Below are positions 23,273 through 39,400 of a stretch of 64,000 nt of DNA, piece after piece (position 1 is the stretch's first letter; every line of letters starts with the position of its first letter). The position numbers and the translations under genes are program-made. The stretch lies in the NCBI GenBank assembly GCA_016215205.1, contig JACRKU010000013.1, forward strand, positions 29,016 to 93,015. Direction: 5' to 3'. A model generated the notes under the pieces. The model did no database searches. It was not told the DNA's origin and saw only the letters and a list, made by a program, of their open reading frames with translations. This DNA is from Candidatus Yonathbacteria bacterium. GTDB taxonomy: Bacteria; Patescibacteriota; Minisyncoccia; Phycocordibacterales; UBA1550.

Positions 23273-23326
23273 AAACCTTGTCAAATGGTGCTTTTTGGTG
23301 TATTGTGCGTCAGTGCTATCGTATTT

Positions 23327-23345
23327 TGGGAGATCGTCGTATGGT
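23327..23345 (+). pseudogene. 5' fragment of tRNA-Gln
   Basis: TGGGAGATCGTCGTATGGT, 17/19 identical to the 5' end of the intact tRNA. Confidence 0.75.
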
Positions 23346-23417
23346 GGGAATGAAAAATGAAGCAGTTCATTTTTCATCCGGTTTCGTGAGAAAATTGCCG
23401 TTGTTTTTGTTTTAAGC

Positions 23418-23488
23418 TGGGAGATCGTCTAATGGTAGGACAGCGGCCTTTGAAGCCGTGAATCTAAGTTCGATTCTTAGTCTCCCAG
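23418..23488 (+). tRNA. tRNA-Gln (TTG), no encoded CCA
   Basis: Acceptor TGGGAGA/TCTCCCA, anticodon arm GCGGC-CTTTGAA-GCCGT, T arm CTAAG-TTCGATT-CTTAG. Confidence 0.96.
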
Positions 23489-23515
23489 CTTAAAACAAAA
23501 ACCGGCAATAGGCGA

Positions 23516-23558
23516 GCCTTTGAAGCCGTCAATCTTGGTTCGATTCCAAGCCTCCCAG
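23516..23558 (+). pseudogene. 3' half of a second tRNA-Gln allele
   Basis: GCCTTTGAAGCCGTC-AAT-CTTGG-TTCGATT-CCAAG-CCTCCCAG. Confidence 0.85.
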
Positions 23559-23600
23559 CAATGAATATAAACCACCGATAGAAAGTGATAGGATTCTTTT

Positions 23601-39019: not shown

Positions 39020-39400
39020 CAAAGCGTTAAGAAAAAGTGAATTGCTTCACTTTTTTAGCTTTGTGAAGGCGCAGTGATGTTTTCTCTGCTCCCCGCAGAG
39101 AAAACCACGAGCCGGGGTCGCGAGCACTTAATAGATTGCGAGCAAAGCGAAGCAATATATTTAGTGACTTGTGACCACGCAGATTTTGCCGAACCTTGTT
39201 CGTCTGTAAAGTGTGGTAAAATACTTAGTAACCCGTGAACGATTCCCCGTAGGGTCACATTTAGAAACTTCAGCAGGTGTGAACGAAAAAATGACGCGCG
39301 CCGCAGGCGGAGCCCGATTTTGAGCTCACTTCCGACCAAGTTTCTGAATGTGAAGGCGGAGCGATGTTTTTGTTTCCATCTGAAACAAAAACCGCGAACA
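39020..39400 (+). mobile_element. Tandem structured non-coding elements at the tRNA-Glu 3' end (one complete, one partial)
   Basis: tRNA 3' end repeated at 39240-39258; conserved hairpins shared with the element at topA. Confidence 0.65.

Follow-up and report, generated by a model that had tools for sequence, protein, structure and literature searches.

A complete tRNA-Gln gene stands inside the two halves of an older tRNA-Gln gene in the window (the whole stretch of 64,000 nucleotides from a Candidatus Yonathbacteria genome that was analysed), and the 160-bp insert which carries it is the loaded form of a three-hairpin module that is also found empty. We regard the architecture and the replacement of the tRNA gene, taken together, as very nearly certain. 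Our main reading, with a probability of about 0.55, is that the insert is a non-autonomous element which spreads as single-stranded DNA (ssDNA) through an enzyme acting in trans, and that its loaded form replaces the cognate tRNA gene. The nest is real and apparently undescribed, a variant of gene-less mobile elements; our search of a limited literature, with few subscription papers, returned no description of nested tRNAs or of the module, and tables of rRNA insertions may include unnamed copies.

G000 below is the genome, that of an ultra-small bacterium, which holds the window (611 kb, 29 contigs, 95% complete), and loci and contigs are labelled L and C. The nest is flanked by a histidine-kinase-like gene and a DUF1905 gene, and has the following parts.

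23278–23306, + strand: promoter-like site, sigma-70-like TTGTCA-17-TATTGT; putative promoter of the resident tRNA gene, which would transcribe the entire nest
23327–23349, + strand: older tRNA-Gln 5′ fragment, nt 1–23; nt 1–12 exact, then T13G, A14T and A21G (standard numbering)
23350–23377, + strand: hairpin A, 12 bp with a 4-nt loop; the loop GCAG is the inverse of the usual CTGC
23378–23381, + strand: linker CCGG (CCGR in 102 of 111 parsed module copies)
23382–23393, + strand: hairpin B, closed by T...A and variable in length, from fold and covariation
23394–23417, + strand: hairpin C left arm, with a 6-bp basal stem, a GT bulge and an upper stem, from pairing
23418–23488, + strand: intact tRNA-Gln(TTG), allele CTAAG/CTTAG, forming the loop of hairpin C, from tRNA search
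23488–23509, + strand: hairpin C right arm, from pairing with 23394–23417
23510–23515, + strand: conserved right end AGG and variable junction bases, from comparison with relatives
23516–23558, + strand: older tRNA-Gln 3′ half, allele CTTGG/CCAAG with C66, equal to a working gene in six genomes of the genus
23558–23581, + strand: orphan right arm of an older shell, a 24-mer that the complete cassette of G024 has as its right arm, base for base

The insert (23350–23509) contains no ORF, and its hairpins come in the order A, CCGG, B and C. It interrupts the older tRNA-Gln between the D arm and the anticodon arm, and the target nucleotides between D stem and anticodon stem are absent at the junction (23510–23515). 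The preliminary description had reported a tRNA-Gln nested within the halves of another, and every part that it named was found at the locus. The inverted repeat that it saw extending the acceptor stem forms a duplex of −26.3 kcal/mol with a 2-nt bulge (23394–23417 with 23488–23509), which none of 2000 shuffles of the right arm equalled. The fold z-score is −7.6 as RNA (23320–23565) and −10.3 as DNA (23346–23515). Two details need correction: the 5′ fragment, which had been ended at 23345, extends to 23349 (nt 1–23), and the helix of TCGTC with GGCGA proposed to close the whole insert is possible on paper but absent from predicted folds, and the bases after AGG vary among relatives. Hairpin B (23382–23393), the older arm (23558–23581) and the membership of the insert in a wider three-hairpin module, of which it is the loaded form, had been overlooked.

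The promoter-like site scores 9 of 12, with two such sites found against 1.3 expected by chance, and a similar one lies upstream of lone tRNA-Gln genes in relatives (e.g. L016 and L019). ARAGORN finds 39 tRNA genes in G000, among them one Gln(CTG) and one Gln(TTG); the latter is the inner gene of the nest, which is hence the only TTG tRNA-Gln detected in this genome. No Rfam family matches the insert.

An assembly chimera of two loci, considered earlier as a collapse, is improbable in the extreme. This stretch is tiled without mismatch by Logan contigs from run X1, which may be the source run, each junction of the nest is covered by one contig, and the junction contigs have an even depth of 17–18 and no differing base. 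These contigs overlap by 16 nt within the tRNA and none bridges it, and the absence of any contig that spans the inner tRNA by 31 nt on both sides is what speaks for a chimera. Against this, the identical layout is seen in dozens of independent assemblies and G010 has the same flanking genes.

The outer fragments were once one gene, and the inner gene is often a foreign allele, because in five other loci (L117, L228, L328, L340 and L345) the outer acceptor strands pair mutually and differ from the inner pair; three more loci labelled compensatory were excluded from this count for their mismatched T loops. In the window, the 3′ half with the compensatory T stem noted before is present, and it is identical over 43 nt to intact genes in G010, G024, G012, G018, G008 and G017. 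The A7–C66 mismatch, earlier counted against the function of a spliced outer tRNA, is carried by the same six intact genes and cannot be read in that way. Lone genes of G004 and G013 match the inner gene without a difference. In a dnaK tree, a single-gene tree with G012 partial and weak inner support, G000 is sister to G010 (93/99) within a 14-genome group (85/83), which holds all six carriers of the outer allele. G004 and G013 fall outside this group, and therefore the inner allele of the window is likely to have come from another lineage.

Shells of this kind can be stacked. Some loaded loci of relatives are two shells deep, and in L003, which has two left and two right parts, the inner parts pair with each other and so do the outer ones, so the shells are nested arm-in-arm. 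G010 retains the left part of an older shell like that behind the arm at 23558–23581. From these sequences we infer that two insertions took place in the window one after the other and that one half-shell was lost. The earlier proposal that a roughly 165-bp tRNA-carrying element replaced the resident gene gains support from the covariation of outer halves, the nested shells and the foreign inner allele. G000 also holds a second loaded copy (L041, C10:12436–12660), in which decayed Leu fragments flank a tRNA-Leu(TAG). Several genomes have in common a working tRNA-Gln allele that shows the A7–C66 mismatch (L011, L013, L016 and L017) and may be a chimera from shell collapse.

The layout of parts recurs in the genus with other sequences (L002, L003, L004, L006, L009, L010 and L015), and many other loci of the genus have a lone tRNA behind a similar promoter. 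With a right-end pattern, matches were obtained in 6 of 401 genomes of the order, which belong to four genera, and the controls gave none. A covariance model was built from hairpins A and B, in which 12 of 15 pairs show double changes (10 of 12 for hairpin A alone). It matched 42 of 151 genomes of the order (E ≤ 1e-4). In the class, 28 of 151 genomes matched at E ≤ 0.01, often weakly, and a phylum-wide draw of 150 other genomes gave no match. The spread of the module is patchy, and its named records carry the labels Paceibacteria, Yonathbacteria, Kaiserbacteria, Nomurabacteria and Vogelbacteria or those of comparable Patescibacteria. Pattern scans of contigs added 99 loci from genomes and 119 from metagenomes; for the genome contigs, 48 of 100 matches were dropped for lack of hairpin A and 4 more as chance-like. 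A strict genus pattern missed most known copies and was abandoned. Viral contigs gave no match to the Gln right-end pattern and one match to the module pattern, which the parser did not class as a module, and in a phage collection nothing matched beyond the tRNA itself. Parsing of the collected loci gave 161 distinct matches, divided into 52 loaded, 59 empty and 50 unclassed, many of the last being true loaded copies missed by the parser. All copies are related by descent and are not independent events, and P values computed over them are overstated.

The 51 distinct single-shell loaded copies (38 Gln-CTG, 10 Gln-TTG and 3 Leu-TAG) all carry a Gln or Leu tRNA, their recognisable flanking fragments are cognate, and they were observed solely in the cognate tRNA gene. 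Their left arms are merely 64% alike, and own arms pair at −21.6 kcal/mol compared with −9.4 for crossed arms, the own pair being the best in 37 of 51. The target lacks 3–6 nt in 32 of 36 scorable copies (12 were unscorable), no target-site duplication was seen in loaded copies, and an antisense guide of more than 10 nt was absent from all 48 loaded Gln copies. On the earlier suggestion of two separate att remnants, a 5′-type and an anticodon-type island scar, unrelated to each other, would flank a tRNA by chance. Scars of the 5′ type are common in G000, where 8 of 39 tRNAs have their first 11 or more nt repeated upstream. However, arms co-vary over the 51 loci, outer halves co-vary and shells nest symmetrically, and a chance pair of scars is most improbable. 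Three tRNA-Gln genes (L089, L107 and L127) stand on inverted-repeat stalks with no adjoining hairpins A and B, and adjoin empty modules or sit inside a shell; they are possible intermediates of loading or collapse.

Confinement to the cognate gene may also be explained with no dedicated enzyme. The whole nest would then have arisen a few times and would move by homologous recombination or single-strand annealing after DNA uptake, with the tRNA fragments as homology arms. In accordance with this, flank changes which look donor-derived are shared by distant genomes (A21G in 23 of 25 ungapped 5′ fragments, GTATGGTGGGA in 5 loci), and the same short deletion recurs as though inherited. However, arms of 12–23 and about 43 nt are short for RecA, such spread gives no drive, and it leaves the 59 empty copies at many unrelated GG sites unexplained. 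We consider this explanation unlikely, though it deserves more weight than any other competitor of our main reading.

The 59 empty copies are 66–102 bp long and have the same hairpin A, CCGR, hairpin B and hairpin C with its GT bulge; hairpin C is closed by a short loop, often CGAAG, and the right end is AGG. By a rough pattern rule, the sites of 32 are tRNA genes or fragments, those of 5 are 23S genes and those of 2 are rpsI ends; the other 20 lie elsewhere, often within other tRNA-linked hairpin elements. The tRNA targets are Gln, Glu, Ser, Leu, Thr, Val and Lys. Most copies are preceded by GG, GGA or a near variant. When an empty copy lies in the 5′ part of a tRNA, a complete tRNA of the same kind usually follows 40–100 bp downstream, and 11 of 28 empty copies that are closely followed by a tRNA have a 12–18-nt antisense copy of the target beyond their right end. 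At rpsI ends the left arm of hairpin A encodes the last codons (KWSKR*), and hence the right arm together with CC is antisense to the rpsI target. Modules at rpsI 3′ ends, with hairpin A encoding the final codons and the stop, were seen in L212, L179 and L147, and at two other gene ends (L145 and L198) the stop codon is formed by the junction. A derivation of hairpin A from the 23S target was also considered; it gave 5–10 matches of 12 on A-rich sequence and was rejected, being kept as a weak idea.

Host-made rescue is another way to obtain such loci. In this explanation the empty module inserts, the host tRNA is copied at each event into hairpin C or downstream of it, and foreign inner alleles come from later exchange. 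An outer T-loop match was obtained for 29 of the 48 loaded Gln copies, and in 13 of these 29 scorable loci the inner and outer 3′ alleles are identical; moreover, the host leader is repeated over 6–49 nt in 6 of 19 empty loci. Both observations also fit host-templated duplication. Against it, in five loci and in the window the inner allele is unlike both outer halves, and near-identical arm types recur across distant genomes, as if the unit travels loaded. A rescue origin is thus improbable as a general account. In L278, L366 and L202 an empty copy lies between identical repeats made of host leader and tRNA 5′ part, up to 49 + 32 nt, which suggests host-templated duplication at these loci.

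Folding of the module points to one strand. Within the arms, G–T pairs outnumber A–C pairs by 68 to 5, so it is the sense strand which folds; this bias fits RNA and ssDNA equally. Among 111 copies, hairpin B has a c-GNA-g triloop in 33 and a GNRA tetraloop in 6, while perfect hairpins genome-wide give 19 and 22, respectively (Fisher P 0.0004, overstated by kinship). As DNA, mini-hairpins of the sequence GCGNAGC are exceptionally stable (PMC13037366, excerpt), and they are found in ssDNA origins and promoters (PMC13037366, excerpt; compare PMC3201870). The loop of hairpin A is CTGC in 80 of 109 copies and GCAG in one, the window copy, and such an inverted loop is expected for a DNA palindrome. 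Taken together, the G–T bias, the GNA triloops and the inverted loop favour an ssDNA intermediate, and suggest that the intermediate is single-stranded and probably DNA.

A route via RNA, by reverse splicing or target-primed reverse transcription in the manner of an intron or intervening sequence, would share the folding of the sense strand. Its targets would be abundant RNAs, and splicing could restore the outer tRNA. In addition, empty modules follow GGAGG(A) close to where 23S rRNA genes have their 5′ end (L143, L192, L193, L211, L223 and L244), and these genes continue as full LSU matches; the copies there must act or be removed at the RNA level. Insertions in 16S and 23S rRNA genes from the Candidate Phyla Radiation (CPR) have been reported, in an excerpt of PMC9297842, to be mostly introns. 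The module was present in 1 of 30 sampled 23S sites, and that site carries many unrelated short hairpin insertions in other genomes.

Splicing was therefore tried on sequence, with 304 cut pairs in each of 15 loci. Two neighbouring cut pairs yield an ARAGORN Gln call in 9 of 15 loci, which speaks for an RNA route, and 4 of 304 pairs pass permissive ARAGORN in the window; the intron mode of ARAGORN at low threshold gave only noise. However, after any cut at least 3 edits remain in nt 8–38 (for the window, 5), and in none of the 15 loci does the best joined product reach the score of the inner gene. Universal bases are lost from the outer fragments: of 25 ungapped ones, 10 have a changed A14 and 23 a changed A21. 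The gap length is variable. No Rfam intron family matched at E ≤ 1 in the window or in 8 further loci, G000 (95% complete) has no RVT_1 match, and the triloops of hairpin B are of the DNA type. Because U8–A14 and A21 have decayed, the outer gene is unlikely to be the host of a spliced intron, and the nested intron-like arrangement once suggested is likewise unlikely. Movement of the module via RNA seems to us improbable.

Our main reading has the enzyme supplied in trans, and against it stands that no mobilising gene is linked to the module. A scan of 72 downstream ORFs, exclusive of 83 upstream ORFs and two downstream ORFs overlapping rRNA, gave no recurrent family and a single Y1 transposase. 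Over 110 module loci, a Y1 gene is near two and an IS110 gene near one. G000 encodes two Y1, three large serine-recombinase and one IS110 gene as well as RNase III, with no match to Phage_integrase (PF00589); its two Y1 genes have their own, different palindromes. For IS110, with one gene in G000 and 1 of 110 loci, no module ends in common with IS110 elements were seen. None of the 161 parser matches is an autonomous copy, and no circle or empty-site allele was observed among these loci. A RAYT-like gene beside the copy in G010 was rejected as the cognate enzyme, having its own palindromes and no recurrence. The empty module of L264, itself within another hairpin element, has an IS110 gene about 260 bp away. 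All 14 control genomes have a XerC/D-type Phage_integrase match, in contrast to G000.

According to our model, the empty A-B-C module would insert just after GG in loops of heavily transcribed genes, and base pairing would probably guide this insertion, with the right arm of hairpin A and CC antisense to the GG and its next bases, as in the rpsI copies; after 11 of 28 tRNA-targeting empty copies, a separate antisense segment may serve as guide. One module lineage would have taken a whole tRNA-Gln into the apex of hairpin C, and since the module then carries a complete tRNA-Gln, insertion into the resident D arm would no longer be lethal. The loaded form is likely to be confined to the cognate gene by pairing, either of the tRNA fragments at its flanks or of the tRNA that it carries. 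Because this tRNA would be a new target in its turn, shells would accumulate; half-shells would be lost where the inner gene recombines with the outer fragments, and this would explain the orphan arm at 23558–23581. Transcription of the inner tRNA would start at the host promoter, and RNase III and RNase P would probably cut the tRNA from its stalk. For the window, the likely course is that the resident allele already stood in an older shell when a second shell, with the allele of another lineage, displaced it.

A more far-reaching version of this model is tentative. The module would represent a new class of programmable gene-less DNA elements, built on an ssDNA three-hairpin scaffold, targeted to essential genes by base pairing, served by an unrecognised enzyme of Patescibacteria and always supplying what they destroy. 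Under this same doubtful reading, the supplied parts would be a gene end, a promoter with the tRNA 5′ part, or a whole tRNA. As a further part of it, essential tRNA genes would undergo continual horizontal replacement and shuffling of halves, which the elements would drive.

IS200/IS605-type elements, together with REPINs and their RAYT transposases, are among the known systems closest to our module. IS200/IS605 elements, such as IS608, and their ORF-less derivatives have hairpin ends, fold on one strand and insert 3′ of a short motif (PMC5934647, excerpt). IS608-type insertion makes no target duplication and chooses its target by base pairing that can be extended (same excerpt). Hairpin ends, folding of one strand and, in loaded copies, the lack of a target duplication are likenesses to the system of PMC5934647, in the part cited; insertion after a short motif, with GG before most copies and AGG at their right end, and pairing-based targeting are possible ones. 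Unlike it, the insert has no linked TnpA, and 3–6 target nt are lost when it is loaded, which is not the clean insertion of IS608-type elements; its targets are essential RNA genes whose function the insert replaces. The four-base guide rule of IS608, checked by eye on both strands, gave no match and was rejected for the module.

In tRNA-dependent lysogeny of actinobacteriophages, a prophage breaks an essential tRNA gene and brings a same-isotype tRNA (Guerrero-Bustamante and Hatfull 2024, PMC10865867, excerpt). As in our nest, the host gene is not rebuilt and a complete same-isotype tRNA compensates; unlike the nest, the excerpt describes a prophage with a tyrosine integrase and a core of about 10 bp (PMC10865867). 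The insert is 160 bp and geneless, holds its tRNA on a hairpin stalk at the site, nests within itself and has an empty form. As regards integrases of this type, no ORF was found in the insert and no PF00589 match in G000, and target bases are lost rather than duplicated. Genomic islands at tRNA genes leave one full and one partial tRNA copy (PMC9897764, excerpt). They share with the nest that tRNA fragments flank foreign DNA and a working tRNA survives, but they leave one fragment and rebuild the gene from halves (same excerpt). Here both 5′ and 3′ fragments remain with a whole new gene between them, and neither integrase nor cargo gene is present.

Bacterial MITEs and mobile insertion cassettes are small, geneless and structured, and may carry passenger DNA. 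The ends of our insert (hairpin A and AGG), in contrast, are not mutually inverted, it has no target-site duplication and its inverted repeat is internal (hairpin C). Compared with introns, the empty module is merely 66–102 nt and has no Rfam intron match. Intervening sequences of rRNA form a further comparison class for the 23S copies. These copies resemble the CPR rRNA insertions in that empty modules lie in full-length 23S genes at one site (5 parsed copies). However, the excerpt of PMC9297842 concerns rRNA only, and names no family shared with tRNA genes.

Our results indicate that essential single-copy tRNA genes have been swapped between lineages by a 160-bp geneless element, and they tie the tRNA-in-tRNA nests of Patescibacteria to a wider module that enters 23S rRNA genes and protein gene ends. 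The tRNA fragments in these genomes should be interpreted with caution, as they may be neither introns nor island scars. Hairpins A–C, the GG target and the natural guide–target pairs offer substrates for an enzyme hunt. If targeting is by extended base pairing, the module would be a natural counterpart of engineered IS608 retargeting.

Other tRNA-linked elements share some features with the module. The preliminary description had noted a likeness of the insert hairpin to one behind a tRNA-Glu: the core is indeed shared, since the tRNA-Glu hairpin has AAAAGTGAA-(C/T)TGC-TTCACTTTT in common with hairpin A of L052, but that hairpin belongs to another element family. Perfect hairpins with CTGC or TTGC loops are also present in other tRNA-linked element families (window 39032–39055; C10:11797, C12:373 and C22:6822 of G000), and these loops account for 10 of 111 perfect hairpins of at least 8 bp. 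Such loops are possibly a shared protein-binding motif. Some tRNA and tmRNA genes of G000 occur twice on small contigs (C6, C16, C22 and C26) as different alleles, including two tmRNAs and two Thr-GGT/Asp/Met clusters, which is consistent with slight bin contamination or islands. Finally, the upstream copies of tRNA 5′ ends in G000 (8 of 39 genes; on C1, C5, C10, C12, C14, C16 and C22) lie 39–93 bp away and cover the first 11 or more nt; seven of them match exactly 12 nt and then have GT, a pattern that would point to a machinery recombining at tRNA position 12/13.
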